DNA of 32,000 nt from Candidatus Saganbacteria bacterium (lineage in GTDB: Bacteria; Margulisbacteria; WOR-1; JAKLHX01): the NCBI GenBank assembly GCA_026387835.1, contig JAPLKZ010000005.1, positions 120,001 through 152,000 of the forward strand, written 5' to 3'. Shown piece after piece: positions 4,150 to 32,000 of the stretch. The position numbers and the translations under genes were made by a program. The stretch's first letter is position 1. Each line of letters begins with the position of its first letter. The notes below the pieces were generated by a model. It worked only from the letters and a program-made list of their open reading frames with translations, did not search any database and was not told where the DNA came from.

Positions 4150-5001
4150 TTGAAGAACGATCAACACAATAAAGGCCTCAGAAATTATCTGTGCCGAAAA
4201 GTCATGAAGTTCACGGCTTTTATCGCGTTCATATCCATCATTTTATTTTCAGCGCAGCCGTCATTCGCGCTTGTGGCGGCGACTGGCGGAGCGATCACAT
4301 ATGACGGAGATTATACTGTCCACACTTTCACTCAAGAGGGCACGTTCCTTGTGACCGGCGGCACTTTGAGCTGCGAAGTGCTTGTTGTGGGCGGCGGAGG
4401 AGCAGGCGCATTCAACATAGGAGCAGTCGACGCAGGAGGCGGCGGAGGAGGCGGCGGTGTTATAGTATCAAATAAAAATTTAAGCGGTTCGTATGCCGTA
4501 ACAATAGGTTCCGGCGGCAGTGGTCCTTTTGATTTTCAAATTCATAACGGGTACCCTTCTTTTCTTGGTTCTTTAGTAACGGCAGAAGGCGGAGGCGGGG
4601 GTGCTTATTCAGGAGCAAATGGTGATCACGGCGGTTCAGGTGGCGGAGCTGCTTATACCATCAGCGATCCGGGAACAGGGGAAGCCGGTCAGGGATATGG
4701 CGGAGGCCATAATATAGATGGGAGTTCCTCCGCGTCTGCAGGAGGAGGCGGCGCGGGAGCAGCCGGTTCAGACGTGACTTCCGAGGCCGGTTCAAACGGA
4801 GGTAACGGAGTATTGTTCCATGGTACGTATTATGGAGGCGGAGGAGGCGGAGGCGGGGGATCTGGGGATGGTGGAATAGGCGGCAGTGGCGGAGGAGGTA
4901 ATGGAGGTAAGGGAGGTGGAGGTCCGGATGGTGGGGGATCAGACGCGACGCCTAATACAGGCGGAGGCGGCGGTGGTGATGGGTATTATGACAATCAGTG
5001 A
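4150..5001 (+). CDS. secreted glycine-rich domain protein
   Basis: The TTG start has a good SD; an alternative ATG lies at 4204. The signal peptide is [24 protein letters not shown]. It is followed by [35 protein letters not shown] and long poly-Gly tracts ending [15 protein letters not shown]. Confidence 0.7.
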
Positions 5002-5008
5002 TCATAAA

Positions 5009-7390
5009 ATGTTGAAATTAACAAACATATTTTTTAAAATTTTATGGGCCGCATTATTTTTAGTATATGCGCTTGCTCCTTTGTGCAGCGCAAACAACAG
5101 CGGCGGCTCGGGGATAGTGGTCATAAGATATTTGACCGATCAGCCTGCGACTACTTATGTTATCACGCCTGAAGCGGGAGCTAACGGAAGCATCAGCCCG
5201 GCTACAGCGCAGACAACTGATGAAGGAGGCAATATAACATTCACGTTCACTCCAAATACCGGTTACGGTGTTTCGCGCCTTCTTGTGGACGGTGTGGCGA
5301 CAGCGGTGGCGACAAGTTACACGTTCACGAATATTACCGCGAACCACACGATAGAAGCGGACTTTAGTCCTACGTTCATCTCAACCTGGGACACGAGAAA
5401 TACATCGACGGGCTCAAGCAACGATCATCAGATCACGCTCCCTCTATACAGCGGCGGAACATATAACTTCACGGTCAATTGGGGAGACGGAAGCAGCGAA
5501 ACGATCACCGCTTATGATCAACCTGGAGTTACTCATACTTATGCATCGACGGGCGTCTACACGCTCGAGGCCAGCGGAACGATCGAGGGATGGAGTTTTT
5601 ATAATGTCGGAGACAAATTAAAGATAACAAATATCAGCCAGTGGGGACCATTAAGACTAGGGAACGGCCCTTCCAACGACGGCGGTCATTTTGACGGAAC
5701 ATCCAATTTAAAGATAACGGCGACGGATGTTCTGGACCTGACAGGGACAACCAGTATGATCAATGCTTTTGCATCCAGCGGGATCGACACAGTTCCTTCT
5801 ATGAATAGTTGGGATGTGTCAAATGTGAATACTATGAGGGGTATGTTTTCCGGCGCAACGCTGTTCAATCAGGACATCGGGAGCTGGCATGTTGATAACG
5901 TTACGGATATGAGTTCTATGTTCACCAGCGCATCATCATTCAATCAGAACATAGTAAGCTGGGATGTCTCAAAGGTCACGGATATGAGCAATATGTTCTG
6001 CGGCGCAGCCTCATTCAACCAGAATATAGGGAGCTGGAATGTATCAAGCGTTGAGAGTATGTTGCAAATGTTCGCTTCTGCCACCTCATTCAACGGGAAC
6101 ATAGGCGACTGGGGAACAAAAACATCCAAAGTTGCTAATATGAGTTCTATGTTCCAAAACGAGCAGTTGTTCAACCAGAACATAGGAAGCTGGGATGTTT
6201 CGAGCGTTACTGATATGAACCATATGTTCTTTGGCGCGATACAATTCAACCAGAACATAGGTAACTGGGATGTGTCAAAAGTCACTAATATGAACGGCAT
6301 GTTCTATTATGCAACATCATTCAACGGGAATATAGGCAACTGGGGGTCTAAAGTATCAAAAGTTACGGATATGCAGCATATGTTCGATTCCGATACCTCA
6401 TTCAATCAGAACATCGGGAGCTGGGACGTCTCAATCGTTACAAATATGAGCGGTATGTTTAATGAAGTAACATTATCAACGGCTAATTACAATAATTTGT
6501 TGACGGGATGGGCCGGCCTGACACTGCATAACGGCGTAACTTTCGATGGAGGAAATTCCAAATATAATGGAGGAACCCCCGAAGCCGCACATACAGTTTT
6601 GACCGGAACTTATGGCTGGACAATAACCGACGGTGGAATAATAACATGGACGATCACACCTGAAGCCGGAGCAAACGGTACGATAAGTCCGAGCACAGCG
6701 ACAACAACGAATGAGGGCTCGTCTACGACGTTCACGTTCACTCCGAACGCCCATTACCATGTATCGCAGGTGCTAGTAGACGGGGTTGCGACAACAGCGG
6801 CGACCAGTTACACGTTCACGAACGTGAGCGCTAACCATACGATAGAAGCTGATTTTGCACAAACTACATGGATGATAACTCCGGAAGCCGGAGCTAACGG
6901 GACGATAAGTCCAAGCACAGCGACAACAACTAATGACGGATCGTCTACGACGTTCACGTTCACGCCGAGCGCACATTACCATGTATCACAGGTGCTAGTA
7001 GACGGGGTTGCGACAACAGCGGCGACCAGTTACACGTTCACGAACGTTACCGCGAACCACACGATAGAAGCGGGTTTCAGCCAAACCACATGGATGATAA
7101 CGCCGGAAGCTGGAGCTAACGGGAGCATCAGTCCCGCTACGGTACAAACGACGAACGAGGGTTCAACAACAACGTTCACGTTCACTCCGAACGCCCATTA
7201 CCATGTATCGCAGGTACTGGTGGACGGACAGGAGCTAACGGGAGCATCAGCCCTGCTACTGTGCAGACAACGAATGAGGGTTCAACAACAACGTTCACGT
7301 TCACGCCGAGCGCACATTACCATGTATCACAGGTACTGGTGGACGGAGTGGCGACGACGGCGGCGACCAGTTACACGTTCACGAATGTGA
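5009..7390 (+). CDS. module A giant surface protein, N-terminal part (BspA-like DUF285 LRR plus InlB-B-like repeats); the reading frame is lost after about 7228
   Basis: The real start is probably the ATG at 5009 ([30 protein letters not shown] signal peptide), not 4886. The [12 protein letters not shown] motif and about 10 [20 protein letters not shown] units (DUF285) span 5366-6637. Tandem TW(T/M)[12 protein letters not shown]...[11 protein letters not shown]...HTIEADF units begin at 6647. The last 54 codons are out-of-frame Arg-rich sequence. Confidence 0.75.
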
Positions 7391-7653
7391 GCGCGAACCA
7401 TACTATAGAAGCGGATTTCAGCCAAACAACATGGATGATCACGCCGGAAGCAGGAGCCAACGGGAGCATCAGCCCTGCCACGGTACAGACTACGAATGAG
7501 GGTTCAACAACAACGTTCATGTTCACCCCGAACGCCAATTATCATATATCGCAGGTGCTTATTGACGGTGTAGCAACAACGGCAGCCACCAGTTACACGT
7601 TCACGAATGTGAGCGCTAACTATACGATAGAGGCGAATTTTGAGATAAATGCC
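6647..7653 (+). repeat. tandem 222-nt (74-aa) InlB-B-like repeat array with one truncated unit
   Basis: The unit-initial TGG (Trp) codon falls at 6647, 6869 and 7091, then at 7432. The last interval of 341 nt equals 222 + 119. A divergent unit starts at 7654. Confidence 0.85.
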
Positions 7654-8802
7654 TATCTGATAACCAGTGAAGCCGGTTCACATGGAACGGTCTCTCCGAG
7701 CGGAGAAACAAGCGTGAATTACGGAAACGACCAGCAATATCTAATAACACCGGAGGCCGGCTACAGCATATCGGATGTATTGGTAGATTCTGTCTCGCAG
7801 GGAAAGATCAGCAGTTATACGTTTACAAATGTCACTGCAAATCATTCAATTGAAGCGAGCTTTACCTCTTCGGCTATCACAGTGAACACGCCTGAAGCTG
7901 ATGCGTTCAGCGGAGTGACGACAACGGTGATCAAAGCCAACTGGAAAGCTAACGGGAATCCCGCGACAACGGAATATTATTGTGAGAATATTACAAAAGG
8001 AACAAACTCAGGCTGGATAACGGCATTTACATGGACATCGTCATCGCTTGAAGCAAGTACAATATACAACTTCCGCGTCAAGGCGAGGATCACTGCAACT
8101 GCTGAGAGCGGATGGGCGGCTCTCGGGACACAGGAGACAACAGCACAGGCTACGTCTGACGCGTCTATCGCAGGAGTCAGTCTAAAGGACGGAGATACCA
8201 TCTCAAGCACGCTGACGATAACAGTATCAATGACAGGAGAAAGCACAATAAGTTCTTCGTCACTGAGACCACAGGCAACGCTGGGAGGAGTGAAAAGTGT
8301 GTATGTTGACGGAGTCGCAGTAGCCTATGACATTATTTCTACAACATCCACGGCAGTGACACTGAAACTGCGCGACGCTCTTTCTGTCGGAACTCATACG
8401 GTCAGGGTAATAACTTATGATACCGCGGGGACTGAATATGTTTTAGAAAGGACCGGCTTATCCGTATCTTCTGGTGCTATCACAACAACGGGTCCTACAT
8501 TAGTATATCCAAACCCGTATGATCCTTTAGCCGGGAATCTCAAGATAACGTATTATCTTTCTGTTGATACAGGAACAACCATATATGTATTTGACACATC
8601 GGGAAGATTAGTATGGAAGAGCAGCTATGACAGCGGTACTAACGGAGGCAAGGCGGGATATAACGAAGTTCTCTGGAATGCAATCGATATGTTTGGCAGC
8701 CCGCTTGCAAGCGACACGTATTTCATCAACATAATAGAGCAGGGGACAGGGAGAGCGATAACGAAGGTGAAGCTTGTGGTATGGAAAGGCGGAGTGAGAT
8801 AG
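7261..8802 (+). CDS. module A giant surface protein, C-terminal part (InlB-B-like repeats, FN3-like, Ig-like, FlgD-Ig/T9SS-type CTD)
   Basis: Repeat homology in this frame already begins at 7228 ([12 protein letters not shown]...). The C-terminal roughly 390 aa is colinear with giant B. Confidence 0.8.
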
Positions 8803-9862
8803 GGATAAGAATGAGGGAGAGGAATGAGGAAGACAAAAAATAATATTATTTGCACAGTGTTATTAATGTTCTGTTTAACAGGGATATCGATAGCAGCTGA
8901 CGTGCTTGATATAGGGGCAGGTGCAAGGTCAATAGGACTTGGCAGGACGAATACCTCGGTGAAGGGAGATGCCTACGGGATATTCGGCAACCCGGCAAGC
9001 TTAAGGGGAGTGACAACGGGCGAGATAGTGAGCATGTACGGGACGATGAACACGGACGTCAAATACACGCTTCTCGGTTACGTGCTGCCTACAAAATACG
9101 GCAAGTTCTTCGCGGGTTACGCTAACAACCAGACACCCGATATTACATCCACGACGCTTGATGCCACAACAGGAAGGCCCGTGGCCGTGACAAACTTTGA
9201 TTTCAGGAACGACATGCTTCTTTTGGGATACGAGAACAGCCTGAGCAAGGCAATATCATACGGATTGAGGGTGAAATACTACAATAAAGGGAGCGCGGCC
9301 ATTGCGAACATGTCGGGTAGCGGAGTAAATGCGGACGCGGGTGTTCAGATAGACACAAATGACAAGCTGACAGTCGGTATGATCGCAAAGAATATAATAC
9401 CCGGACAGTCGATAAAGCTTCTTAACGGGCAAACTGAGGAGCTTCCGGGAGAGTTTGACATAGGACTTGGGTTTTTCCCTCATAAGAGACTGGATATCTA
9501 TGCGGATCTGAATCTTACAAGGAACATCCCTGCGGAAGCAAAAGTTGGTATCGAGTGGAGGATGGTGGATTTTCTGGCATTGCGCCTTGGCGCAGAGCAG
9601 AAGTCGATGGGTGCAAGTTCAAGTTATATAAACGGTTCAGCCGGCGTGGGATTAAACCTGGGGATATTCGGTATAGATTACGCGTATTACTATGACAGTC
9701 TTGTGACGACCAACTCAAGGCATTTCATTTCGATATCAATAAAAACACCGGCAGTGAAAGCGGCTGAGCCTGTGTTCCCGGAAAAGACAGCAACTAAAGC
9801 GATATCTAAAGAAGAAGTTAAGATCATAACTCCTAAAGCGCCGGCAATTCCGGTTGAAGAAG
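7642..9862 (+). repeat. segmental duplication, copy A (partner 13036..15256)
   Basis: The two copies align without indels at a constant 5394-nt offset from FEIN(A/S)YLITSEAG through the barrel gene linker ...PKAPAIPVEE. Confidence 0.9.
8491..8799 (+). other. FlgD-Ig / Por_Secre_tail-like C-terminal domain of giant A
   Basis: The sequence [93 protein letters not shown] matches the YPNP(F/Y).P....I.Y.L......I.(I/V)(Y/F)D..G.LV......G.....W.......G..(V/L)..(G/D).Y pattern of these sorting domains. Confidence 0.7.
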
Positions 9863-10038
9863 TGAAAGCAAAAGAGCCTGAAGCGATTGAATATATAGTA
9901 GTGGAAGATGACTGGTTGAGTAAGATAGCGTTAAGGTACTTAGGTGATATGAAGAGATATCCTGAGCTTGCCAAGATGAACGACATCAAGAATCCCGATC
10001 TGATATTTCCCGGGCAGAAGATAATTATAAAGAAATAA
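8824..10038 (+). CDS. PorV/PorQ-like outer-membrane beta-barrel fused to one C-terminal LysM domain
   Basis: The signal peptide is MRKTKNNIICTVLLMFCLTGISIAA/DV. The N-terminal motif is GARSIGLGRT..V.GDAYGIFGNPASL. Amphipathic strands end at NSRHFISISIK, followed by a P/K/E linker and a LysM domain YIVVEDDWLSKIALRYLG...NPDLIFPGQKIIIKK. The purine-rich GGGAGAGG lies just upstream, 21 nt after the giant A stop. Confidence 0.65.
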   Translation: MRKTKNNIICTVLLMFCLTGISIAADVLDIGAGARSIGLGRTNTSVKGDAYGIFGNPASLRGVTTGEIVSMYGTMNTDVKYTLLGYVLPTKYGKFFAGYANNQTPDITSTTLDATTGRPVAVTNFDFRNDMLLLGYENSLSKAISYGLRVKYYNKGSAAIANMSGSGVNADAGVQIDTNDKLTVGMIAKNIIPGQSIKLLNGQTEELPGEFDIGLGFFPHKRLDIYADLNLTRNIPAEAKVGIEWRMVDFLALRLGAEQKSMGASSSYINGSAGVGLNLGIFGIDYAYYYDSLVTTNSRHFISISIKTPAVKAAEPVFPEKTATKAISKEEVKIITPKAPAIPVEEVKAKEPEAIEYIVVEDDWLSKIALRYLGDMKRYPELAKMNDIKNPDLIFPGQKIIIKK

Positions 10039-10066
10039 CCCTTCGCTGACCTCTTCCAATTTCTTC

Positions 10067-10095
10067 TTGCTTATTGAGCTCGCGTTATATATTAT
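10067..10095 (+). promoter_or_regulatory. possible promoter for module B
   Basis: TTGCTT at 10067-10072, a 17 nt spacer, then TATTAT at 10090-10095. There is no strong SD before the ATG at 10129. Confidence 0.35.
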
Positions 10096-10128
10096 ATAAA
10101 CATCTAATCATATGACAAGAAAACAGAA

Positions 10129-13100
10129 ATGAATAATATCTTGAAAAAGCCCGGTTTAATATTATTTTATTGTTTAGCGGTCATATTTCTCTGTCTCTCA
10201 CCCGCATACGCCAGTTATCCGGATCATGTAACAAAAACAATGTCCGGATTCAGTCTCCCTCTTGGTATAGCCATTACTCCGGGTGGAGATTATGCGTATG
10301 TTGCAAATAGTGGTGGCAACAATGTTTTGGTTATTCAAACCTCCAGCAATACCACAACAGCAGCGATCTCCGTAGGGACGAATCCCAAGGGTGTTGCCAT
10401 TACTCCTAATGGAAATTACGCATATGTTACAGATTATTCCGGTGCTTCCGGCAATAGAGTTACGGTTATCGATACTTCCACCGGTACCGTTGCAGCGACA
10501 ATTTCCGGACTGAATGGACCCTTTGGCGTAGCCATAACTCCGGATGGAAATTACGCTTATGTCGCAAATTATGTTGGCAACACGGTTTCGGTTATCCAAA
10601 CCTCAACCGAAGCTGTTACCGCGACAATCAATGTAGGGACTCAACCCCAAGCTGTTGCCATTACTCCGAATGGAAATTTTGTGTATGTTGTAAATTATAA
10701 TGGCAACAGTGTTTCGGTAATCAATACTTCCACCAATACTGTTTCAGCGACGGTCAATGTAGGGAGTCAACCCCAAGGTGTCGCAATAACTCCGGATGGA
10801 AATTACGCGTATGTTTCAAATTCTTCCAGCACTCTTAGCAACTCGGTTTCGGTAATCAATACTTCCACCAACACAGTTACAGCGACGATCCCTGTAGGGA
10901 GCAACCCCATCGGCGTAGCCATTACTCCGGATGGAAATTACGCATATGTTGCAAATTATCTTAGCAACTCGGTTAAGGTTATCGATACTTCCACCAACAC
11001 CGTTGCGGCGACGATCACTGTAGGGACTCAACCCAACGGTGTCGCCATAACTCCGGATGGAAATACTGCGTATGTTACAAATACTAACGGCAACACGGTC
11101 TCGGTCCTCGGAAAAACAACATGGACGATCACGCCGGAAGCGGGAGCTAACGGAAGCATCAGCCCAGCTACTGTACAGACAACGAATGACGGCTCGTCTA
11201 CGACATTCACATTCACACCGAACGCCCATTACCATGTATCGCAGGTGCTAGTTGACGGGACAAATGTAGGGACACCAGCAGCATATACATTCAGCAATGT
11301 GAGTGCGAACCACACGATTGAGGCTGATTTTGTTATCAATACCTGGACGGTCACGCCTAATGCGATAGGTTACGGCACGGTCAGTCCGGGCACAGCAGTA
11401 ATAACGGACGAAGGCTCGACAACAACATTTACGTTCAATCCCAATCCGCATAGTCACGTAACTAATGTACGAGTAGACGGGACCAGCGTGGGTACTCCGT
11501 CATCGTACTCGTTCACAAACGTGAGTGCTAACCACACGATAGAAGCGGAATTCGAGCGGATCACCTGGATGATCACACCGGAAGCCGGAGCTAACGGAAG
11601 TATCAGTCCTGCTACTGTGCAGACGACGAATGAGGGAAGCGATACGACATTCACGTTCACGCCGGATGCTAATTACCATGTATCGCAGGTGCTGGTTGAT
11701 GGTGCAAATGTAGGGACGCCGACAGCGTATACTTTCAGCAATGTCAGCGCGAACCATACTATTGAAGCGGACTTTATAGCATTGTCTCCCGCTGCACCGA
11801 GTAATTTTAATCCCGTACCGGCTTCAACAACTCAAATGAATTATACATGGACAGATAATTCATCAAACGAATCGGGGTTTGTGATACTTGACGGATCAAA
11901 CAATGTAAAAGTGCTTGTGGCCGCGAATGCCACATCAACAAGTGAAACAGGTCTATTGGCTAATACGCAGTATACAAGGAAAGTAACCGCATATAACGGC
12001 GGCGGAGCGGCGACGTCAGATGCGGTTTCCAAATACACATCAATAGAAGCGGCTGTAAGGGGAACATATGAAGCGGGGACAACTACAAGCATAACTATTC
12101 ATTCATCAAATGCCCCGTCCAATTTGACATCGGAATCGTCCGGAATATACTTTGAAAATGTCACACAGGGAACAAATTCAGGTTGGATACAAAATAATAC
12201 TTGGACAAGTTCCGGCTTACCGTCTAATACTACATACAGTTTCAAAATAACTGCAAGGAACGGTGACGGGACAATAACATCGACAACGGATGCCGGTTGC
12301 CAGACAACTAACAATCTTCTCACCAATCCGGGAGGGGAAAGTGCGGACACAACGGGATGGACCGTGATCGACAACGGAGGGAGCGGATGGTTAGTGGGCG
12401 GAGGCTTTGTCCACTCCGGGAACTACTCATTTCAATCTTCATACAGCTGGTGCAGTATGAACCAGACAATAGATCTTTTATCCAAGGGGTATTCGGCCGC
12501 CCAGCTTGATGCGCAACCCGTTATCACCTTCAAAGACTGGGTTATGTGCCGTGACTACTTTGATACTTATTACTACATGAAATTCGACTTACTGGCTGCT
12601 GACGGGGTGACCGTGATCTCATCAGAGTCCATCGGGAGCCAGGCTAGTCCTGTTACTCTTCCCCAGAATACAGCTTGGACCGAGGTCTCTCGTACTTTTA
12701 CCGGTTACGGCACGGGGGTCAGATACATCAAATTTAAACATGCAGGATATGATGGCGGGAGGTGGGCGGGTCAATACGGCACATACTTTGATGACGCATC
12801 CGTCACTGTTGCTGGCAGCACATATTATCTGATCACAAGTGAAGCCGGCTCACACGGGTCAATAACCCCGAGCGGAACGGCAAGTGTTTATTATTGCGAT
12901 AGCCAGCAGTATGTGATTACCCCGTCAACCGGATATCATGTTTCAGGACTATTGATTGACGGCGGTACAGTGACAGCCACAACGGAATACACTTTCACCA
13001 GTGTTGCGGCAGATCATACAATAATCGCGAGTTTTGAGATCAATTCATATTTGATAACTTCCGAAGCCGGCTCACACGGAACGATCACACCGAGCGGGGA

Positions 13101-14196
13101 AACGAGCGTGAACTATGGAAGTGATCAGCAATATCTGATAACACCTGAAGCAGGGTACAGCATATCGGATGTGTTGGTCGATGCTGTCTCGCAGGGAAAG
13201 ATCAGCAGTTATACGTTTACAAATGTCACGGCAAACCATTCAATAGAAGCGAGCTTCTCTTCGTCGGCAATTTCAGTGCACACTCCCGAGGCCGCAGCTT
13301 TCAGTAATGTAACTACAACAGTGATAAAAGCTAATTGGAAAGCAAACGGCAATCCCGTGTCAGCTGAATATTATTGCGAGAATGTAACCACTTCAACTAA
13401 TTCCGGATGGATATCAGGCTTGACATGGACATCATCGTCGCTTGAAGCAAGCACAGTGTACAGCTTCAGGGTCAAAGCCAGGATAACTGCAACATCCGAG
13501 AGCGGCTGGGTATTACTGGGGACGCAGGAGACAACTGCGCAGGCCACAGCTGATGCTTCTATAGCGGGAGTGAGCCTGAAGGACGGAGATTCGATCTCCA
13601 GCACTCTGACGATCACGGTATCACTGACAAGTGAGACCACAATAAGTTCTCTGTCAATAAAACCTCAGGCGACTCTCGGAGGAGTGAAGGAAGTGGATGT
13701 TGACGGGGCCTCTGTCGCATATGACGTGATCTCAACCACATCAACTTCAGCCACGATAAGATTAAGAAATGCGCTCTCAGTCGGAACGCATACCATCAAA
13801 ATAATAACTTATGACACGGCGGGCACAGAATATGTGCTTGAGAGAACAAACCTGAAAGTTTCATCCGGTACCATCACAACGGTAGGTCCCACACTGGTAT
13901 ATCCCAACCCTTATGATCCTTTAGCGGGGAATCTTAAGATAACCTATTATCTCTCTGTTGATACAGGGACCACAATATATGTCTTTGACACAACAGGAAG
14001 ACTGGGCTGGAAGAGCGATTACCCGAGCGGTACCAACGGAGGCAAGGCGGGATACAACGAAGTGCTATGGAACGCTGTCGATATGTTCGGCAGCCCGCTT
14101 GCAAGCGACACGTATTTCATCAACATAATAGAGCAGGGGACCGGTAGAGCGATAACGAAGGTGAAGCTTGTGGTATGGAAAGGCGGAGTGAGATAG
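10129..14196 (+). CDS. module B giant surface protein (1355 aa): 7-blade YVTN beta-propeller, InlB-B-like repeats, FN3, FBA-like lectin domain, Ig-like, FlgD-Ig/T9SS-type CTD
   Basis: The signal peptide ends ...LSPAYA/SY. Seven P.GVAITPDGNYAYVAN...V.VI.TSTNTV.ATI.VG units span about 10258-11127. Three [15 protein letters not shown] units span 11119-11775. FN3-like units span 11776-12309 and the FBA-like domain spans 12310-12810. [11 protein letters not shown] units span 12823-13257 and the CTD spans 13885-14193. Confidence 0.9.
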   Translation: MNNILKKPGLILFYCLAVIFLCLSPAYASYPDHVTKTMSGFSLPLGIAITPGGDYAYVANSGGNNVLVIQTSSNTTTAAISVGTNPKGVAITPNGNYAYVTDYSGASGNRVTVIDTSTGTVAATISGLNGPFGVAITPDGNYAYVANYVGNTVSVIQTSTEAVTATINVGTQPQAVAITPNGNFVYVVNYNGNSVSVINTSTNTVSATVNVGSQPQGVAITPDGNYAYVSNSSSTLSNSVSVINTSTNTVTATIPVGSNPIGVAITPDGNYAYVANYLSNSVKVIDTSTNTVAATITVGTQPNGVAITPDGNTAYVTNTNGNTVSVLGKTTWTITPEAGANGSISPATVQTTNDGSSTTFTFTPNAHYHVSQVLVDGTNVGTPAAYTFSNVSANHTIEADFVINTWTVTPNAIGYGTVSPGTAVITDEGSTTTFTFNPNPHSHVTNVRVDGTSVGTPSSYSFTNVSANHTIEAEFERITWMITPEAGANGSISPATVQTTNEGSDTTFTFTPDANYHVSQVLVDGANVGTPTAYTFSNVSANHTIEADFIALSPAAPSNFNPVPASTTQMNYTWTDNSSNESGFVILDGSNNVKVLVAANATSTSETGLLANTQYTRKVTAYNGGGAATSDAVSKYTSIEAAVRGTYEAGTTTSITIHSSNAPSNLTSESSGIYFENVTQGTNSGWIQNNTWTSSGLPSNTTYSFKITARNGDGTITSTTDAGCQTTNNLLTNPGGESADTTGWTVIDNGGSGWLVGGGFVHSGNYSFQSSYSWCSMNQTIDLLSKGYSAAQLDAQPVITFKDWVMCRDYFDTYYYMKFDLLAADGVTVISSESIGSQASPVTLPQNTAWTEVSRTFTGYGTGVRYIKFKHAGYDGGRWAGQYGTYFDDASVTVAGSTYYLITSEAGSHGSITPSGTASVYYCDSQQYVITPSTGYHVSGLLIDGGTVTATTEYTFTSVAADHTIIASFEINSYLITSEAGSHGTITPSGETSVNYGSDQQYLITPEAGYSISDVLVDAVSQGKISSYTFTNVTANHSIEASFSSSAISVHTPEAAAFSNVTTTVIKANWKANGNPVSAEYYCENVTTSTNSGWISGLTWTSSSLEASTVYSFRVKARITATSESGWVLLGTQETTAQATADASIAGVSLKDGDSISSTLTITVSLTSETTISSLSIKPQATLGGVKEVDVDGASVAYDVISTTSTSATIRLRNALSVGTHTIKIITYDTAGTEYVLERTNLKVSSGTITTVGPTLVYPNPYDPLAGNLKITYYLSVDTGTTIYVFDTTGRLGWKSDYPSGTNGGKAGYNEVLWNAVDMFGSPLASDTYFINIIEQGTGRAITKVKLVVWKGGVR
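12310..12810 (+). other. FBA (F-box-associated, FBXO2/Fbs1 sugar-binding)-like domain within giant B
   Basis: The sequence is NNLLTNPGGESADTTGWTVIDNGGSGW...SSYSWCSMNQTIDLLSKGYSAAQLDAQPVITFKDWVMCRD...W.EVSRTFTGYGTGVRYIKFKHAGYDGGRWAGQYGTYFDDASVTV. It shares the ordered motifs NLL.NP.GE...GW..GG.GW, S..WC...Q.IDL...GY...LD.QP.I..KDW..R.D, W.E.S.TF..YG.GVR...F.H.G.D..W.G..G and SV.V with human FBXO2 as I recall it. Confidence 0.6.
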
Positions 14197-15256
14197 GGAT
14201 AAGAATGAGGGAGAGGAATGAGGAAGACAAAAAATAATATTATTTGCACAGTGTTATTGATATTCTGTTTAACAGGGATATCGATAGCAGCTGACGTGCT
14301 TGATATAGGGTCAGGCGCAAGGTCAATAGGACTTGGCAGGACGAACACGTCGGTGAAGGGAGATGCCTACGGGATATTCGGCAACCCGGCAAGCCTGAGG
14401 GGAGTGACGACGGGAGAGATAGTGAGCATGTACGGGACTATGAACACGGACGTCAAATACACGCTTCTCGGTTACGTATTGCCTACAAAGTACGGGAAGT
14501 TCTTCGCGGGATACGCCAATAACCAGACACCCGATATCACGTCCACGACGCTTGACGCCACAACGGGAAGGCCCGTGGCCGTGACCAACTTTGATTTCAG
14601 GAACGACATGCTTCTTTTGGGATACGAGAACAGCTTAAGCAAGACAATATCATACGGATTGAGGCTGAAATACTACAACAAAGGCAGTGCGGCCATTTCG
14701 AACATGTCGGGTAGCGGAGTAAATGCGGATGCGGGTGTCCAGATAGACGCAAATGACAAGCTGACAGTCGGTATGATCGCAAAGAACATCATACCCGGAC
14801 AGTCGATAAAGCTTCTTAACGGCCAAACGGAGGAGCTTCCGGGAGAGTTTGACATAGGACTCGGTTTTTTCCCGCATAAGAGACTGGACATCTATGCGGA
14901 CCTGAATCTTACAAGGAACATCCCTGCGGAGGCAAAGCTTGGCATTGAATGGAGGATGTTGGACCAACTGGCATTGCGACTTGGTGCCGAGCAGAAGTCA
15001 ACGGGTGCGAGTTCAAGTTATATCAACGGTTCTGCAGGCGTGGGTTTGACCCTGGGGATATTCGGAATAGATTACGCATATTACTATGACAGTCTTGTCC
15101 AGACGAACTCGAGGCATTTCGTATCGATATCGATAAAAACACCGGCAGTGAAAGCGGCTGAGCCTGTGTTCCCGGAAAAGACAGCAACTAAAGCGATATC
15201 TAAAGAAGAAGTTAAGATCATAACTCCTAAAGCGCCGGCAATTCCGGTTGAAGAAG
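13036..15256 (+). repeat. segmental duplication, copy B (partner 7642..9862)
   Basis: Same alignment as copy A. By eye, about 13 aa differences occur in about 345 aligned residues of the barrel proteins. Confidence 0.9.
13885..14193 (+). other. FlgD-Ig / Por_Secre_tail-like C-terminal domain of giant B
   Basis: Colinear with 8491..8799 and shows the same YPNPYDP...IYVFDT.GRL.WK...YFINIIEQ pattern. Confidence 0.7.
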
Positions 15257-15606
15257 AAGCAACAGAGGCCGTAACATCCGTTGAAGAGACAAAAGAGCCG
15301 GTAATGACGTATGCGGTAAAACCGGGAGACACGCTTGGCAAGATATCATCACTTTTCCTGGCGGACGGCTCAAAGTATACGGAGATAGCGAAAGATAACG
15401 GGATTGAAGACCCGAACCTGATATATGCGGGACAAAGGATCAAGATAACTAGAGTCGTATATGTCGTCAAGGAAGGGGATACGTTAAGCGGGATCGCTTT
15501 AAAGTTCATGAACAATGCAGATCTTTATACCAAGATCGCCAAAGATAACAGCATCGAGGATCCCCGGCTGATATTCAGCGGGCAGAAGATAGTGATCAGA
15601 AAATAA
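14218..15606 (+). CDS. PorV/PorQ-like outer-membrane beta-barrel fused to two C-terminal LysM domains
   Basis: The barrel and linker are nearly identical to 8824..10038. They are followed by YAVKPGDTLGKISSLF...NLIYAGQRIKI and YVVKEGDTLSGIALKF...RLIFSGQKIVIRK. The same 21-nt spacer follows the giant B stop. Confidence 0.65.
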   Translation: MRKTKNNIICTVLLIFCLTGISIAADVLDIGSGARSIGLGRTNTSVKGDAYGIFGNPASLRGVTTGEIVSMYGTMNTDVKYTLLGYVLPTKYGKFFAGYANNQTPDITSTTLDATTGRPVAVTNFDFRNDMLLLGYENSLSKTISYGLRLKYYNKGSAAISNMSGSGVNADAGVQIDANDKLTVGMIAKNIIPGQSIKLLNGQTEELPGEFDIGLGFFPHKRLDIYADLNLTRNIPAEAKLGIEWRMLDQLALRLGAEQKSTGASSSYINGSAGVGLTLGIFGIDYAYYYDSLVQTNSRHFVSISIKTPAVKAAEPVFPEKTATKAISKEEVKIITPKAPAIPVEEEATEAVTSVEETKEPVMTYAVKPGDTLGKISSLFLADGSKYTEIAKDNGIEDPNLIYAGQRIKITRVVYVVKEGDTLSGIALKFMNNADLYTKIAKDNSIEDPRLIFSGQKIVIRK

Positions 15607-26268: not shown

Positions 26269-26907
26269 ATGTTCACAAAAGAGACAAACAATATCAAGCG
26301 GGAAGTAATATGCGGACTGATATCCCGTTCTTTGAGGAAGCTGCCGAAAGCTGTGATCAGCCCCGAACAGATGCAAAGATTGACGGGCAGTTCATCGTTC
26401 CTGCTGACAAGGCCCGGCGGAGGCCTTCTGCAGTTTAGGCATGTTGCGATACCGATAGAAAATCAAATAAAAGGGCATCGGGTGTTCCAGTTTGAGGTAT
26501 TCCGCAGGCAGACGTTGATAGGGGATACCAAGCCGGCAGGATGCCTGAGTATTTTTCCGGATCAAGGCGCAGGACCTTCCCTGACATTCGATGCCGTCAT
26601 GAGCTCGATGCTCAACACGAAAATGTTATCAGGATACTCAAAAAATGCGGAACGAATAATAACCATCTCAAGACATCTGTTTAATTCCGGGCCCTATGCG
26701 GTCATGTTCGTTCCTGATTCAAACGTCTCTTATTATCTTTGGAGCAGCGATCCTGCACTCCGGCTGTCGCAGATAGGAAATATCAGGGAAAGCCAGGCGG
26801 ACAATAATGGATTCAGGGCATTTATGATGTGGACGATGAATTACGATGCCCTTGGCGTAATGATGATAAAGCCGATGAAGTACCGGAATATGTTCATCCC
26901 GATATAA
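26269..26907 (+). CDS. hypothetical protein (no recognisable family)
   Basis: It is the only long ORF in 26180-26840. AAGGAAA lies upstream of the ATG, and the sequence is not low-complexity. Its 3' end overlaps the convergent GT2 gene by 67 nt. Confidence 0.45.
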   Translation: MFTKETNNIKREVICGLISRSLRKLPKAVISPEQMQRLTGSSSFLLTRPGGGLLQFRHVAIPIENQIKGHRVFQFEVFRRQTLIGDTKPAGCLSIFPDQGAGPSLTFDAVMSSMLNTKMLSGYSKNAERIITISRHLFNSGPYAVMFVPDSNVSYYLWSSDPALRLSQIGNIRESQADNNGFRAFMMWTMNYDALGVMMIKPMKYRNMFIPI

Positions 26908-27752
26908 CAGAGAAGAACCGCTGCAAAAAATATAAGAAATGCCCTTATGACATCAAAAAAGATCAATACGGATAAAGTTTTCCATCCGAAGTGTTTTTTG
27001 AAATAATGGTTCCTGCTCCTTGTCCAGTGTTTCCCCAGTTTCAGCGGTCCCCATTTCTTTATCGAGCTGCCGCCATGGTGGACTATCTGAGCAGTCGGAG
27101 TGAAAAATATCTTCCACCCTGCCTTTTTTATCCGTGTACACAGGTCCACCTCATCAAAGAACATGAAACTTTCCTCATCGAACAGGCCGACCTTGTCCAG
27201 AACGTCTTTTCTTAACATGATAGCCGCGCCCATCGGCTGGTCAATTTCCATGACCATGTCGTGTTTGAAACCCGCCATGAGATATTTACTTGAGTACGGG
27301 TTGCCGGGCCATATCTGTTCGATAAAAATAAGCCTCATTATCATGGCGCCGAGGGTAGGGAAGGAGAGCACGGACCTTTGAAGGGAAAGATCGGGATTTA
27401 ATAATTTAGGCGCAACAGCGGCAGCGTCCGGATGGCCGTTAAAAAAAGCTATAAGTTTGTCCAAAGCACCCGGCAATACTTCCGTGTCGGGATTTAGCAA
27501 CAGAATGTATTTACCTTTACTTTGTTTGATGCATTGATTGTTGGCAGTCGAAAAACCGAGATTATTGTTATTTATTATCAAATTGACCCTGGGATACGAA
27601 GCCCTTACCATTTCGACCGAACCATCGGAAGAATTATTGTCCGTTACGATGACTTCAAAATCGCAGGCGGGAGGATTAGTATATATTGAATCGAGGCACT
27701 TTTTCAAAAACTCTCTGACATTCCAGCCTACTATACAGATGGAGAGGTCCAT
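26841..27752 (-). CDS. family 2 glycosyltransferase with a C-terminal TM segment
   Basis: The N-terminus is LSICIVGWNVREFLKKCLDSIY...FEVIVTDNNSSDGS, followed by LLNPD..V and FFDEVDLC motifs. It lies 30 nt downstream of the DUF4116 gene on the same strand. Confidence 0.85.
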   Translation of the reverse strand: MDLSICIVGWNVREFLKKCLDSIYTNPPACDFEVIVTDNNSSDGSVEMVRASYPRVNLIINNNNLGFSTANNQCIKQSKGKYILLLNPDTEVLPGALDKLIAFFNGHPDAAAVAPKLLNPDLSLQRSVLSFPTLGAMIMRLIFIEQIWPGNPYSSKYLMAGFKHDMVMEIDQPMGAAIMLRKDVLDKVGLFDEESFMFFDEVDLCTRIKKAGWKIFFTPTAQIVHHGGSSIKKWGPLKLGKHWTRSRNHYFKKHFGWKTLSVLIFFDVIRAFLIFFAAVLLCYIGMNIFRYFIGFIIITPRAS

Positions 27753-27782
27753 ATATAGAATTATAGACTAAAAAATATGGGA

Positions 27783-29846
27783 TTATTTCCCTGCAGCTTT
27801 CAGTATGTCCGGATCGTTCTGCAGCGACACATCCGCAAACCTTAATGCCAGCCCACTTTGTTTAACGGCAGCCAAGACGACCTCTTTATCTTTTTTTAAG
27901 GACCCGTCAGCATATTCTAATGCCCACCCGTTTTGTTTGACCGCAGCCAAGACGATCTCTTTATCTTTTTTCAGGGACCCGTCAGCAAATTTTAATGCCC
28001 ACCCGTTTTGTTTGACCGCAGCCAAGACGACCTCTTTATCTTTCTTTAAAGATCCGTCAGCATATTCCAGTGTGTCCCAATTATTATTAACCGCAGCCAA
28101 AACGATCTCCTTATCTTTTTTCATAAACTCGTCAGCATATTTCAATGCCTCCCCATCTTGTTTAACCGCAGCCGAAACGACCTCTTTATCTTTACATAAA
28201 GCCTTGTCAGCAAACTCTAGTGAATTTCCCTTTTGTTTAACCGCAGCCAAAACGATGTCTTTATCTTTTTTTAAAGATCCGTCAGCATAATATAGTGCCC
28301 AACCATTTTGTCTGACCGCGGCCAAAACAAAATCTTTATTTTTTTTCAATGATCCGTCCGCAAATTTTATTGCCTGCCAGCTTTGTTTGACCGCAGCTAA
28401 AAACGACCTCTTTTGTTCAGCCGCAGCCGAAACAATATCCTTGTCTTTTTTCAATGACTCATCAGCAAATAATAATGCTTCCATATCTTGTCTAACGGCA
28501 GCCAAGACGACCCCTTTATCTTGTTTTAAAGATTCGGCCGCAAATTCTAATGCCAGCCCATTTTGCTTAACGGCAGCTAAGACAACCTCTCTATCAATTT
28601 TTAAAGACTCGTCGGCTTTTTGTAAGATACACCCACTTTGTTTAACGGCAGCCAAGACGACCCTTTTATCTTTTTTAAAAGACTCATCAACAAAAATTAA
28701 TGCCGAACCCTCTTGTTTAACGGCAGCCAAAACAAACTCCCTATTTTGTTTTAATGACCAATCAGCGCACTTTAATGCCCACCCATTTTGTTTAACGGCG
28801 AGCAGAACAAACACCTTATCTTTTTTTAAGGACTCGTCAGCATAATCTAATGCCCACCCGTGTTGTTTGACCGCGGCCAAAACGACCTCTTTATCTTTCC
28901 TTAAATACAAGTCAGCAAACTCTAATGCCAGCCCGGCTTGTTTAACTGCAGCCAAAACAATATCCTTGTCTTTTTTCAAAGACTCGTCAGCATATATTAA
29001 TGCCAGGCCATCTTGTTTAACCGCAGCCAAAACGACCTCTTTGTCTTTCCTCAATGACTTGCTGCAGCATTCTAAAATATGAATATTTTGTTTGCTTGCA
29101 GCCAAGACGACCTCTTTATCTGTTTTTAAAGAATCGTCAGCGAACCTTAATACCCACCCATTTTGTTTAACCGCAGCCAAAACGACTTCTTTGTCTTTAC
29201 ACAAAGCATTATCAGCAAACTCTAATGCATCCCCATTTTCTTTAACAGCAGCCAAAACAAACTTTTTATCTTTCTTTAATGATTCGTCAGCATACTTTAA
29301 TGCCTTTCCATCTTGTTTGACCGCAGCCAAAACGACCTCTTTATCTTTTGTCAAAGACTTGTCCGCAATCATTAACGCCAGCCAGGTTTGCTTAACCGCG
29401 GCCAAAACAATCTCTTTATCTTTATTTAAAAATCCGTCTGTTATTAGAAAAGATGTTGAACCATTCTTAATTGCAGCTAATGCGAGCTCTCTTTTTCTTG
29501 TAGAAACAAAACCTTCTACTTCTATCTGCAGGCTGATGTTGCTCTGTTGTTCAGGGGTTAATGCAGTGTTTAGTTGAGGTCTCAGCGCGTTTATATTCCC
29601 ATCCAGATCGCCATCTGATTTATCTAATGTCCGAAGTTTTAAATACAGTTTCTGGATGACATCAAAAGAAGAAGTCTTGCCCTCGTTGAATTGTACCGAC
29701 GTATCGATCTGTTTATTTGCGGCCTCATCCAGTTCTTCGCGGGTTATGTTCCCGTCAATTATCCCGTCCCTTATCGAATCGATCTTTCTCAACCTTTCAT
29801 AAATATGCTGGATGTTATCGGCGCCGGTCAAAGTTACTTTTTCCAT
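27783..29846 (-). CDS. DUF4116-type repeat protein, paralog 1 (about 22 x 25-aa repeats) with a conserved N-terminal EF-hand/dockerin-like domain
   Basis: The start is probably the ATG at 29846 (GGAGGG SD, MEKVTLTG...) rather than the TTG at 29852. LAAVKQNGWAL.(F/Y)ADGSLKKDKE(I/V)V units span 27786-29489. No signal peptide is present. Confidence 0.85.
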   Translation of the reverse strand: MEKVTLTGADNIQHIYERLRKIDSIRDGIIDGNITREELDEAANKQIDTSVQFNEGKTSSFDVIQKLYLKLRTLDKSDGDLDGNINALRPQLNTALTPEQQSNISLQIEVEGFVSTRKRELALAAIKNGSTSFLITDGFLNKDKEIVLAAVKQTWLALMIADKSLTKDKEVVLAAVKQDGKALKYADESLKKDKKFVLAAVKENGDALEFADNALCKDKEVVLAAVKQNGWVLRFADDSLKTDKEVVLAASKQNIHILECCSKSLRKDKEVVLAAVKQDGLALIYADESLKKDKDIVLAAVKQAGLALEFADLYLRKDKEVVLAAVKQHGWALDYADESLKKDKVFVLLAVKQNGWALKCADWSLKQNREFVLAAVKQEGSALIFVDESFKKDKRVVLAAVKQSGCILQKADESLKIDREVVLAAVKQNGLALEFAAESLKQDKGVVLAAVRQDMEALLFADESLKKDKDIVSAAAEQKRSFLAAVKQSWQAIKFADGSLKKNKDFVLAAVRQNGWALYYADGSLKKDKDIVLAAVKQKGNSLEFADKALCKDKEVVSAAVKQDGEALKYADEFMKKDKEIVLAAVNNNWDTLEYADGSLKKDKEVVLAAVKQNGWALKFADGSLKKDKEIVLAAVKQNGWALEYADGSLKKDKEVVLAAVKQSGLALRFADVSLQNDPDILKAAGK

Positions 29847-29917
29847 TTTCAACCCTCCTTCTCTGTGGCATATTTAAAACCCAAATTTCTTTATTAAATA
29901 GCAGCCAGATCAAGTTA

Positions 29918-30703
29918 TTATTTCCCCGCAGCTTTCAGTATGTCAGGATCTTTCTGCAGCGATGCATCCGCGTAATTTAATGCCCACTCATGCTGTTTGA
30001 CCGCGGCCAAAACAACCTCTTTATCTTTCTTTAAAGAGTCATCAGCAAAATATAATGCCCACCCGTTTTGTTTAACAGCGGCCAAAACAATATTTTTATC
30101 TTTCTTTAAAGATTCGTCGGCATATACTAATGCAAGCCCGTTTTCTTTGACCGCGGCCAAAACGATCTCCCTGTCTTTTTTGAAGAGTTCGCCGGCATAT
30201 TGCAATCCATTCCCGTATTGTTTAACCGCGGCTAAAACGCTCGCTCTATCTTTCTTTGAAGCCGTATCCGCAGATGGTTTTGCCGCCCGCTCATCTTTTT
30301 TGACCGCAGCCGGAACGGCCTCTTTGTCTTTCTTTGGAGCTTCTTCCTTTTTTCCGGTAAGATCAGAAGCTTCTAATTCTAATTGCAGGCTGAACTTGCG
30401 CTGTTGTTCAGGGGTCAAAGGAAAGTTGAGGCGGAACCTTAGATCTTTGATATTGCCGTCCAGTTTGCCATCCTCTTTGTCCATAGTCTGAAGTTTCAAA
30501 TAGAGTTTTTGAATAACCTCAAAAGACGTAGTTTTGCTTTCATTGAATTGCACGGACGTATCGACTTGTTTCTTTGCAGCCAGGTCCAGTTCCTCCCGGG
30601 TTATATTGCCGTCTATTTTCCCGTCCTTTATCGAATCTATCTTCCTCAGCCTCGCATAAACGCTCTCGATATTTACGGTCCCGGTCAATGTTACTTTTTC
30701 CAT
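29918..30703 (-). CDS. DUF4116-type repeat protein, paralog 2 (4 intact repeats plus a degenerate K/A/P-rich linker)
   Basis: It has the same N-domain (MEKVTLTGTVNIESVYARLRKIDSIKDGKIDGNITREELD...) and the same C-terminus DPDILKAAGK* as paralog 1. An AAGGAAGGA SD lies upstream. Confidence 0.85.
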   Translation of the reverse strand: MEKVTLTGTVNIESVYARLRKIDSIKDGKIDGNITREELDLAAKKQVDTSVQFNESKTTSFEVIQKLYLKLQTMDKEDGKLDGNIKDLRFRLNFPLTPEQQRKFSLQLELEASDLTGKKEEAPKKDKEAVPAAVKKDERAAKPSADTASKKDRASVLAAVKQYGNGLQYAGELFKKDREIVLAAVKENGLALVYADESLKKDKNIVLAAVKQNGWALYFADDSLKKDKEVVLAAVKQHEWALNYADASLQKDPDILKAAGK

Positions 30704-30754
30704 GTTATCCTTCCTTTCTTTTTAAGATAAATATAAATCCTTCATATACTTAGT

Positions 30755-31903
30755 TCAATGCCTGCCTATTTGTTCGGCTGCAGCAGAAATAACATCTTTA
30801 TCATTTTTCAAAGACTCGTCCGCAAATTCTAATGCCCGCCCATTTTGCTTAACCACGGCCAAGATAAACGCTTTATCTTTCTTTAAAGATTCATGGGCAA
30901 AATTTAACGCCCACACATCCTGTTTGATCGCCGCCAGAACAATTTCCTTGTCTTCTTTTAAAGACCCATCTGCATATGCCAATGACCGCCCGTTATGTTT
31001 GACCGCTGCCAGAACAACATCCCTGTCTTTTTTTAAAGAGTTGTCAGCAAAGTCTAATGCCCACACATCTTGTCCGATCACAGCCAGAACAAACTCCTTA
31101 TCTTTCTTTAAAGACTTGTCCGCAAACTCTAATGCCCGCCAGTCTAGTTTAGCCGCAGCCAGAACAAACGCTTTATCTTTTTTCAAAGACCCGTCCGCAA
31201 ACTCTAATGCCCGCCCATTTTGCTTAACCACAACCAAGACAAACGCTTTATCTTTTTTCAAAGACCCGTCCGCAAACTCTAATGTCCGCCCATTTTGCTT
31301 AACCGCAGCCAAGACAAACGCTTTATCTTTTTTTAAAGATTCGTCTGCAAATTCCAGTGTCTGGACATCTTGATTAGCCGCAGCCAAAACAACCTTTTTA
31401 TCTTTCTTTAAAGACTCGTCTGCATACATAAATGTCCGCCAATTTTGCTTGACCGCCGCCAAAACAATCTCTTTATCTTTATTTAAAGATCTATCAGTTA
31501 TCAGGAAAGATGTTGAGCCATTCTTAATTGCCGCTAATGCGAGCTCTCTTTGTTTTGTGGAAACAAAAGCTCCCACTTCTAACTGTAGGCTGACTTTACT
31601 TTGTTGTTCAGGAGTTAATGCGGTAACCATGTTAGGTCTCAGCACGTTTATATTGCCATCCAAGTCACCATCCGCTTTATCTAATGCCTGAAGTTTCAAA
31701 TATAGTTTTTGAATAACATCAAAAGACGAAGTTTTGCCCTCGTTGAATTGCACTGACGTATCGATCTGTTTATCTGTGGCCTCGTCCAGCTCCTCGCGTT
31801 CTATATTTCCGTCAATTATTCCGTCCCTTATCGAATCGATCTTTCTCAACCTTTCATAAATATGCTGGATATTATCGGCGCCGGTCAATGTCGCTTTTTC
31901 CAT
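30755..31903 (-). CDS. DUF4116-type repeat protein, paralog 3 (about 10 repeats)
   Basis: The start is probably the ATG at 31903 (AAGGAAGG SD, MEKATLTG...) rather than 31939. The N-domain is near-identical at nt level to paralog 1. The protein ends ...DKDVISAAAEQIGRH*. Confidence 0.85.
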   Translation of the reverse strand: MEKATLTGADNIQHIYERLRKIDSIRDGIIDGNIEREELDEATDKQIDTSVQFNEGKTSSFDVIQKLYLKLQALDKADGDLDGNINVLRPNMVTALTPEQQSKVSLQLEVGAFVSTKQRELALAAIKNGSTSFLITDRSLNKDKEIVLAAVKQNWRTFMYADESLKKDKKVVLAAANQDVQTLEFADESLKKDKAFVLAAVKQNGRTLEFADGSLKKDKAFVLVVVKQNGRALEFADGSLKKDKAFVLAAAKLDWRALEFADKSLKKDKEFVLAVIGQDVWALDFADNSLKKDRDVVLAAVKHNGRSLAYADGSLKEDKEIVLAAIKQDVWALNFAHESLKKDKAFILAVVKQNGRALEFADESLKNDKDVISAAAEQIGRH

Positions 31904-32000
31904 ATTAGCCTTCCTTTCTTTATAGAGAACTTTGATCATTTAGCCTCTTTTGGCCTCAACTATGTATCGACAGAATATTTGAAAAATTTCACACTTTATT

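Follow-up and report, generated by a model that had tools for sequence, protein, structure and literature searches.

The DUF4116 (PF13475) repeat family is widespread, occurring in protists, chlamydiae, marine bacteria and phages alike. Membership of this family carries no information on mechanism. Its 49-residue Pfam model spans two units of 25 residues, and a trRosetta model of another member is an alpha-solenoid (PMC8078820); a sequence search for a solved structure of any DUF4116 protein detected none. Here we describe three tandem DUF4116 genes of Candidatus Saganbacteria bacterium (assembly GCA_026387835.1), located at positions 27783-31903 of the 32,000-nucleotide stretch that was analyzed (positions 120,001 to 152,000 of contig JAPLKZ010000005.1), which we call the window. 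Their products share an N-terminal module of about 115 residues, the head, which is no part of DUF4116.

Several described architectures invite comparison. Adaptor proteins such as the substrate receptors that join an F-box to repeats (an F-box with DUF4116 occurs in P0085) likewise have a constant N-terminal module, variable repeats and an expansion of paralogs. The analogy is one of architecture only: the head has no sequence or structural relation to the F-box and no known partner. In the metagenomic protein P0091 (244 residues), an EF-hand pair at the N-terminus precedes four or five DUF4116 units and a short tail. An EF-hand head on DUF4116 thus has a precedent, and P0091 resembles the second of our three proteins in overall layout and size, N-terminal helix-loop-helix pair included. 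A likeness to HEAT-like and alphaRep solenoid binders lies in the HEAT-like ends of two relatives, P0005 and P0006, whereas the three window proteins hold DUF4116 only and no HEAT.

With a probability that we put at roughly 0.55, the three genes are old tandem paralogs encoding soluble, most likely cytoplasmic, modular alpha-solenoid proteins with a constant head and an adaptor or scaffold role. The locus is real and belongs to a fairly ordinary lineage-specific family, and the head is, on sequence evidence, a previously undescribed domain known so far only from Saganbacteria/Margulisbacteria.

Three DUF4116 paralogs with a common head

The minus strand carries three co-oriented intact genes of 687, 261 and 382 residues, as had been proposed by a reading of the same DNA from its letters alone (hereafter the sequence-only reading). 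Paralog 1 (27783-29846) is separated from paralog 2 (29918-30703) by 71 nucleotides and paralog 2 from paralog 3 (30755-31903) by 51. A ribosome-binding site (GGAGG-like or AAGGAAGG) lies 7-8 nucleotides before the ATG of each. For paralog 1, it favors the ATG at 29846 over the TTG at 29852 given in a mechanical list of open reading frames (ORFs), and for paralog 3, it favors the ATG at 31903 over the upstream ATG at 31939, to which the frame is open and where the mechanical list starts it. Paralog 2 (MCX5748933.1) already carries the NCBI name "DUF4116 domain-containing protein", and paralogs 1 and 3 are absent, under either start, from the protein collection that was searched.

The PF13475 profile matched all three proteins far above the Pfam gathering score of 24.9 bits: 13 stretches in paralog 1 (E 1.2e-191, 620.6 bits), four in paralog 2 (E 1.1e-62, 207.8 bits) and nine in paralog 3 (E 4.8e-114, 372.2 bits), which bears out the assignment of the repeat to DUF4116 by the sequence-only reading. 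Its copy numbers of 22, 4 and 10 likewise agree with the layout in the 25-residue register. In paralog 1, the head (residues 1-115, 29502-29846) is followed by 14 units (array A, 28440-29489), by an irregular segment, DIVSAAAEQK (28410-28439), that shifts the register by 10 residues and splits the arrays, by eight further units (array B, 27810-28409) and by the cap DILKAAGK. Paralog 2 consists of a head (residues 1-115, 30359-30703), a K/E/A-rich linker with one decayed unit (AVPAAVKKDERAAKPSADTASKKDR; 30245-30358), four regular units (29945-30244) and the same cap. Paralog 3 has a head (residues 1-115, 31559-31903), 10 units (30797-31546) and an atypical tail, DVISAAAEQIGRH. The cap DPDIL...K of paralogs 1 and 2 also occurs in the unrelated DUF4116 protein P0016.

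At the nucleotide level, Tandem Repeats Finder reported a period of 75 nucleotides (~25 residues) with 7.6-13.1 copies per row. The consensus over 37 units, xxVLAAVKQxGxALxFADxSLKKDK, is a strongly conserved scaffold, and variability is concentrated at unit positions 1, 10, 12, 15 and 19, as would be expected of a solenoid whose ligand-binding face varies.

The shared N-terminal domain claimed earlier was recovered, the heads being 68-86% identical in amino acid sequence over 115 residues, and its claimed novelty held in all searches, by sequence and by fold. Against Pfam, at E <= 10, the head gave nothing but noise; NCBIfam and PHROGs gave no match; and the head profile retrieved from the PDB sequences only spurious complement C4 matches (E >= 0.45). 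With the full-length proteins, PADLOC and NCBIfam gave repeat noise only, with scores far under the cut-offs, and a reading of the locus as a defense system was rejected on these scores.

The family was revealed by an exhaustive HMMER search of 1.84 billion (1.84e9) representative proteins, which returned 11 head matches, one of them spurious (an Ig-repeat protein); paralog 2 scored 232.9 bits. In every real member, the match begins within the first seven residues, and all the named head-bearing proteins come from Saganbacteria or Margulisiibacteriota metagenome-assembled genomes (MAGs). A word-indexed search of 5.8 billion proteins returned only the 99-residue P0001, missing P0002, P0005 and P0006, which are present in that collection. 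A metagenome scan for the head gave four loci. No relative of the head emerged from two scans of 185,579 GTDB species genomes; since these scans depend on patterns, this is weak evidence of absence. The adjacent genes for P0005 (MCX5748683) and P0006 (MCX5748684) form a second tandem pair with heads, probably on another contig of the same MAG as the window, since their accessions fall in the series of the window proteins.

In the relatives, the head is fused to different bodies (DUF4116, HEAT-like repeats, both, or regions without any family match), indicating modular shuffling. P0005 and P0006 join it to DUF4116 and a HEAT-like tail that matches alphaRep binder scaffolds (E 1.3e-12). P0007 has an unknown middle domain of ~340 residues between head and DUF4116, and P0008 has the same type of middle domain followed by a C-terminal region without family match, HEAT-like on reading. 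P0010 carries a short DUF4116 array, P0011 a 670-residue region without family match that appears by eye to consist of helical repeats, and P0012 another repeat type. The short P0001 (L001, 10001-10300; Logan ERR15302191 and other samples) joins head residues 1-46 to a C-terminal tail resembling the one in P0009 and lies among ORFs of 526-2060 residues without Pfam match. It lacks the 4-residue loop insertion discussed below and looks like a deletion derivative, the collapsed remnant of a full-length family member.

Conversely, the arrays occur with other heads. A search with the array retrieved 539 proteins at E <= 1e-10, and none of the 120 nearest relatives listed for the array carried the head. 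Besides the present head, DUF4116 arrays occur with an EF-hand pair (P0091), an F-box (P0085), BRCT and SH3_3 (P0035, in which SH3_3 stands behind a hydrophobic N-terminus that reads as signal-peptide-like in the sequence). These combinations support the view that DUF4116 arrays may be generic binding modules steered by exchangeable heads. In P0127 (361 residues, likewise metagenomic), the EF-hands are C-terminal. Among bacteria, DUF4116 may be mostly a feature of eukaryote-associated lineages, as the sequence-only reading proposed, but the few named sources of DUF4116 proteins comprise, besides Naegleria and Anoxychlamydiales, also Cocleimonas and a Flavobacteriales MAG, and for the relatives from the last two no host association was recorded in the search results. 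A phage family of unknown function, phrog_31839, matched residues 124-259 of the paralog 2 array (E 4.3e-26); DUF4116-like arrays therefore occur also in viruses of bacteria or archaea. One genome has a large DUF4116 expansion, comprising P0018 and at least 16 paralogs of ~450 residues on a single contig of 3,123,268 bp; the N-terminus of P0018 is F-box-like by eye (LLTCKRW motif).

A duplicated head and its possible relation to EF-hands

The sequence-only reading had noted two imperfect DxDxDG-type loops in the N-terminal domain and called it EF-hand- or dockerin-like. Both loops are present, and they are the two copies of one internally duplicated unit of ~50 residues, each with a helix that leads into an extended loop rich in Asp and Gly. 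Compared with each other, the two halves of the head gave an hhalign probability of 90.9% (E 1.1e-6) and a Smith-Waterman z of 9.2, a score reached by none of 500 shuffles, with IQHIYERLRKIDSIRDGIIDGNI aligned to IQKLYLKLRTLDKS-DGDLDGNI. In paralog 1, the loops read DSIRDGIIDGNITREE and DKSDGDLDGNINALR. The duplication therefore reproduces the paired helix-loop layout of an EF-hand pair, with two homologous helix-loop-helix motifs in tandem.

An AlphaFold model of the head, built from a 12-sequence family alignment, reached a predicted local distance difference test (pLDDT) score of 80.1 and a predicted template modeling (pTM) score of 0.72; an alignment of the three paralogs gave an unusable pLDDT of 34.8. 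The model comprises a strand (2-7), a helix (9-23), a loop, a helix (36-44), a small hairpin, a helix (61-78), a loop, a helix (86-88) and a strand (105-110), and its helix-loop-helix elements sit where the motifs predict. Compared with solved folds by Foldseek, it gave no match and no EF-hand protein. Because the model matches no known fold, a docking or metal-binding role of the head is at present a conjecture.

The canonical EF loop of 12 residues places its oxygen ligands at 1, 3, 5, 9 and 12, and positions 6 and 8 are taken by Gly and by a hydrophobic residue, respectively. Read from D27, loop 1 of the head has D1, D5, G6, I8, T9 and E12, and the exiting helix of the model starts at loop position 10. 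However, loop 1 of the window proteins (D-I/K-D-G-I-T/E-E) has Ile or Lys at position 3 and is preceded by a 4-residue insertion, and loop 2 (D-D/K-D-G-I-N/K-R) has Arg at position 12, where most members have Arg or Lys; the window heads thus depart from the canonical loop. Only the two most divergent members, P0011 and P0012, have a fully canonical loop 1 (DSNxDGxIxxxE).

Profile comparisons gave a similar picture. The window heads matched none of the EF-hand hidden Markov models (PF13499, PF00036, PF13202), even at E <= 10. Matches below threshold were obtained for three of the 12 members (P0001, P0011 and P0012), those without the insertion, the best with E 5.8e-5; P0012 scored 21 bits against a cut-off of 25.9. 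With hhalign, calmodulin aligned at head residues 87-110 with a probability of 6.5%. The EF-hand head of P0091 (10%), the EF-hand region of P0127 (5%) and a four-sequence EF-pair profile (31%, E 5e-4) aligned at the first motif, in the last case at this motif only, always with a 4-residue gap at the insertion. The heads of P0091 and P0127, in contrast, pass the Pfam EF-hand thresholds (EF-hand_7, 36-53 bits) with canonical 12-residue loops, while the Saganbacteria head differs by its extended loops, extra beta elements and ~45 more residues. The head is plausibly a degenerate EF-hand-pair derivative, with putative metal binding.

A stronger claim, which we regard as possible though doubtful, is that the head is a functional calcium sensor, a divergent EF-hand pair that would respond to Ca2+ by changing the solenoid's conformation or its partner binding, much as calmodulin-like regulators do. 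Canonical pairs (calmodulin lobes, PF13499) do share with it the tandem units and, in loop 1, the D, D, G and I at positions 1, 5, 6 and 8, the E at 12 and the helix from position 10. The canonical loops of P0011 and P0012 point the same way, as does the fact that the EF-hand was the top recurring Pfam match, and hhalign always placed loop 1 on the EF loop of genuine EF-hand heads. P0091 and P0127, unrelated DUF4116 proteins, carry real EF-hand pairs, and in paralogs 1 and 3 the DxDxDG motif is present in loop 2 as DGDLDG. Rigden and Galperin reportedly described, in 2004, DxDxDG motifs able to bind Ca2+ outside the EF-hand context. Against a sensor stand the failure of the window proteins to reach any EF-hand model, the residues at loop 1 position 3 and loop 2 position 12, the insertion, the low calmodulin score and the absence of EF-hand proteins from the Foldseek result. 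Moreover, the model is alpha/beta, with strands at both ends and a hairpin, and not a plain four-helix EF lobe, and the short loops of P0011 and P0012 could have arisen secondarily through the loss of four residues, as clearly happened in P0001.

Proposed role, age and array length

In the adaptor or scaffold reading, the head would be the constant module, docking the protein to a shared partner or self-associating, and might bind a divalent cation. It arose by internal duplication and probably descends, in degenerate form, from an EF-hand pair. The solenoid would offer a variable ligand-binding surface at unit positions 1, 10, 12, 15 and 19, and the paralogs would be alternative adaptors or scaffolds that differ in length and specificity. 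No signal peptide or transmembrane segment was found in the three proteins (maximum Kyte-Doolittle value in a 19-residue window 0.81-1.25, hydrophilic N-termini), consistent with the earlier statement that a signal peptide is absent and with a probable cytoplasmic location.

Export from the cell nevertheless deserves consideration. We think it unlikely that the proteins act outside the cytoplasm, as effectors that are secreted or translocated or as scaffolds on the surface. On this view, the head would serve export or trafficking in a lineage-specific way, and the array would bind its target in another, possibly eukaryotic, cell. The invariable place of the head at the extreme N-terminus, together with variable C-terminal bodies, recalls the N-terminal trafficking domains of polymorphic effectors, and DUF4116 is present in Naegleria and Anoxychlamydiales and is also joined to F-box and BRCT heads of eukaryote type. 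Many large proteins of surface type are encoded in the window as well, among them one whose FBA domain is of eukaryote type, and the head-bearing genes elsewhere sit among very large ORFs without family match. However, besides the lack of export signals, no secretion-system gene was found among the window ORFs scanned (those of at least 200 residues and one of 99), the other loci have no conserved neighbor, the C-terminal bodies are binding solenoids rather than toxin or enzyme domains, and selection is purifying, not diversifying (see below). In the literature consulted, no evidence was found of a host association of Saganbacteria, some relatives of which are described as sediment-associated.

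The age of the paralogs can be judged from their divergence. The head nucleotide identity is 85% (293/345) between paralogs 1 and 3, 76% between 1 and 2, and 74% between 2 and 3. Synonymous divergence (dS) among the paralogs is 0.64-1.05, the lowest value being that of the heads of paralogs 1 and 3, and the ratio of non-synonymous to synonymous divergence (dN/dS) lies at 0.12-0.19 in the heads and reaches 0.24 over the first eight colinear units of paralogs 1 and 3. The genes are therefore old duplicates under purifying selection, neither near-identical nor hypervariable. The sequence-only reading had called the N-terminal domains of paralogs 1 and 3 near-identical at the nucleotide level, which is an overstatement, and had likened the locus to rapidly evolving or contingency loci, which these values, together with the repeat structure described next, do not support.

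A run of about 50 identical nucleotides that it had noted does exist, 29764-29813 in paralog 1 being identical to 31821-31870 in paralog 3 (minus strand; encoding IQHIYERLRKIDSIRDG), although the position given for paralog 3 was ~10 nucleotides off. This 50-nucleotide stretch, for which a short gene-conversion tract is one possible origin, is the longest exact repeat of the locus, and its occurrence at a background identity of 85% is mildly surprising (P about 0.012). Apart from it, only two exact repeats, of 46 and 38 nucleotides, are longer than 31, and all three are below the typical length of a sequencing read. The longest is shared between genes and the 46-nucleotide one is the longest between units, whose mean nucleotide identity is 67%. 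Independently assembled Logan contigs (k = 31) from several samples match exactly over the paralog 3/paralog 2, paralog 2/paralog 1 and paralog 1/glycosyltransferase junctions and stop precisely at exact repeats of at least 31 nucleotides, inside the arrays. This agreement, with breaks only at such repeats, makes an assembly artefact or a slippage-driven contingency locus unlikely.

It is accordingly very improbable that the locus is phase- or length-variable or that its differences in array length come from misassembly. The copy number of a tandem 75-nucleotide repeat does differ between neighboring paralogs, short-read assemblies with k = 31 do break within the arrays, and the one identical tract suggests occasional gene conversion. 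However, long tracts of identical or near-identical, slippage-prone tandem units were not found, the divergence between the paralogs is old, the intergenic junctions agree between samples, and all three reading frames are intact. Just as improbable is a dockerin-like head docking into a cohesin-bearing scaffold, as in the cellulosome: two duplicated Asp/Gly-rich loops followed by helices do recall the duplicated dockerin segments, but the head is an N-terminal module of 115 residues, not a C-terminal one of ~70, the CelS dockerin gave an hhalign probability of 0.6%, Dockerin_1 (PF00404) gave no match, no structural match or signal peptide was found, no cohesin domain was found among the same scanned window ORFs, and the dockerin likeness was rejected.

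How the arrays change in length is seen most clearly in a relative. The second half of P0005 aligns without gaps with residues 106-670 of P0006 (60% identity over 565 residues), the last 15 head residues included. P0005 therefore arose by the in-frame fusion of two tandem paralogs, one of which lost its head: a head plus 9-unit gene was joined to a P0006-like gene without head residues 1-105. The DIVSAAAEQK segment of paralog 1 resembles the C-terminal tail of paralog 3, which suggests that paralog 1 may also be a fusion of two ancestral genes, with the segment as its scar. Array length would thus change slowly, by the duplication or loss of units and by in-frame fusion of neighboring paralogs in which the intervening head is lost, and high-frequency slippage would play no part.

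Several points weigh against the adaptor or scaffold reading and the history proposed with it. The head model has no match among solved folds, the sole argument for a cytoplasmic location is the absence of classical export signals, and the literature mentioning DUF4116 held no functional work on it or on the head. At the other family loci (L001, L008-L010), no conserved neighbor was found; the neighbors there are large ORFs without Pfam matches, non-homologous between lineages. The DNA at the paralog 1 junction is ~75% identical, no more than ordinary units are among themselves, and paralog 3 might alternatively have been truncated at an ancestral irregular segment.

Surrounding DNA and wider meaning

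The locus was followed up to window position 32000. A gene for a GT2 glycosyltransferase (MCX5748931.1, 26841-27752, minus strand; PF00535, E 6.9e-24) lies exactly 30 nucleotides 3' of paralog 1 on the same strand, as noted before. This adjacency is confined to the window and its Logan copies and was unseen at the other family loci examined. Convergent with this gene is a plus-strand ORF of 212 residues (26269-26907) that overlaps its 3' end by 67 nucleotides; it had no match in Pfam, NCBIfam or PADLOC and was called as a gene in independent Logan assemblies.

A scan for promoters and terminators yielded consensus matches at chance level only, and none of the intergenic gaps showed a minus-strand terminator. 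Plus-strand ORFs of 71-164 residues overlap all three arrays (27805-31373, e.g., 27805-28290 and 30924-31373). They stay open because the periodic repeat has no stop codons in that frame, and they were rejected as genes, being antisense readings of the repeat (repeating LTAAKTTSLSFFKDxSA). Between 27000 and 32000, the GC content drops to 0.40-0.42 (0.447 at 27001-28000), compared with 0.43-0.54, mostly 0.46-0.51, in the rest of the window, and the GC skew over the locus is negative (-0.07, then -0.20 to -0.31), being mostly positive elsewhere in the window. Both features are due to minus-strand coding and to the Lys/Asp/Ala-rich composition of the repeat.

Elsewhere, the window carries housekeeping genes (nuoH-type NADH dehydrogenase, citrate synthase, trigger factor, ClpP, Lon, IleRS, SAHH (MCX5748926), LspA and Lgt) and, at 4150-15606 on the plus strand, a cluster of large, mutually paralogous surface-type proteins with Gly_rich_2, DUF285, InlB B-repeat (Flg_new_2), beta-propeller and fn3 domains. 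Two LysM proteins of the cluster (8824-10038 and 14218-15606) are 86% identical, and the C-terminal 458 residues of a 1355-residue protein (10129-14196, plus strand) are 79% identical to the 513-residue ORF at 7261-8802; the cluster looks like a segmentally duplicated cell-surface locus. Residues 724-894 of the 1355-residue protein match the FBA domain PF04300 ("F-box associated region"; E 1.2e-32), which sits between beta-propeller/fn3 and InlB B-repeat modules. The FBA family is mainly known from eukaryotic Fbs-type F-box proteins.

What is new at this locus is an undescribed head of ~115 residues, repeatedly combined with DUF4116 and HEAT-like solenoids and so far seen only in relatives of Cyanobacteria. 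The locus family also documents the growth of arrays by fusion of tandem paralogs. The practical yield is modest, namely a candidate Pfam-type domain family and better annotation for a handful of MAG proteins, and the head is a small, tractable domain for structural and metal-binding work. A bolder view, which we consider rather unlikely, is that the head is a new docking or sensor domain defining a Saganbacteria/Margulisbacteria adaptor system, in which this shared and possibly cation-responsive module would recruit interchangeable solenoids (DUF4116, HEAT-like) to a common partner. If true, this would make the system a bacterial counterpart of the eukaryotic substrate-receptor families built of a head and repeats, and DUF4116 would gain its first functional handle.

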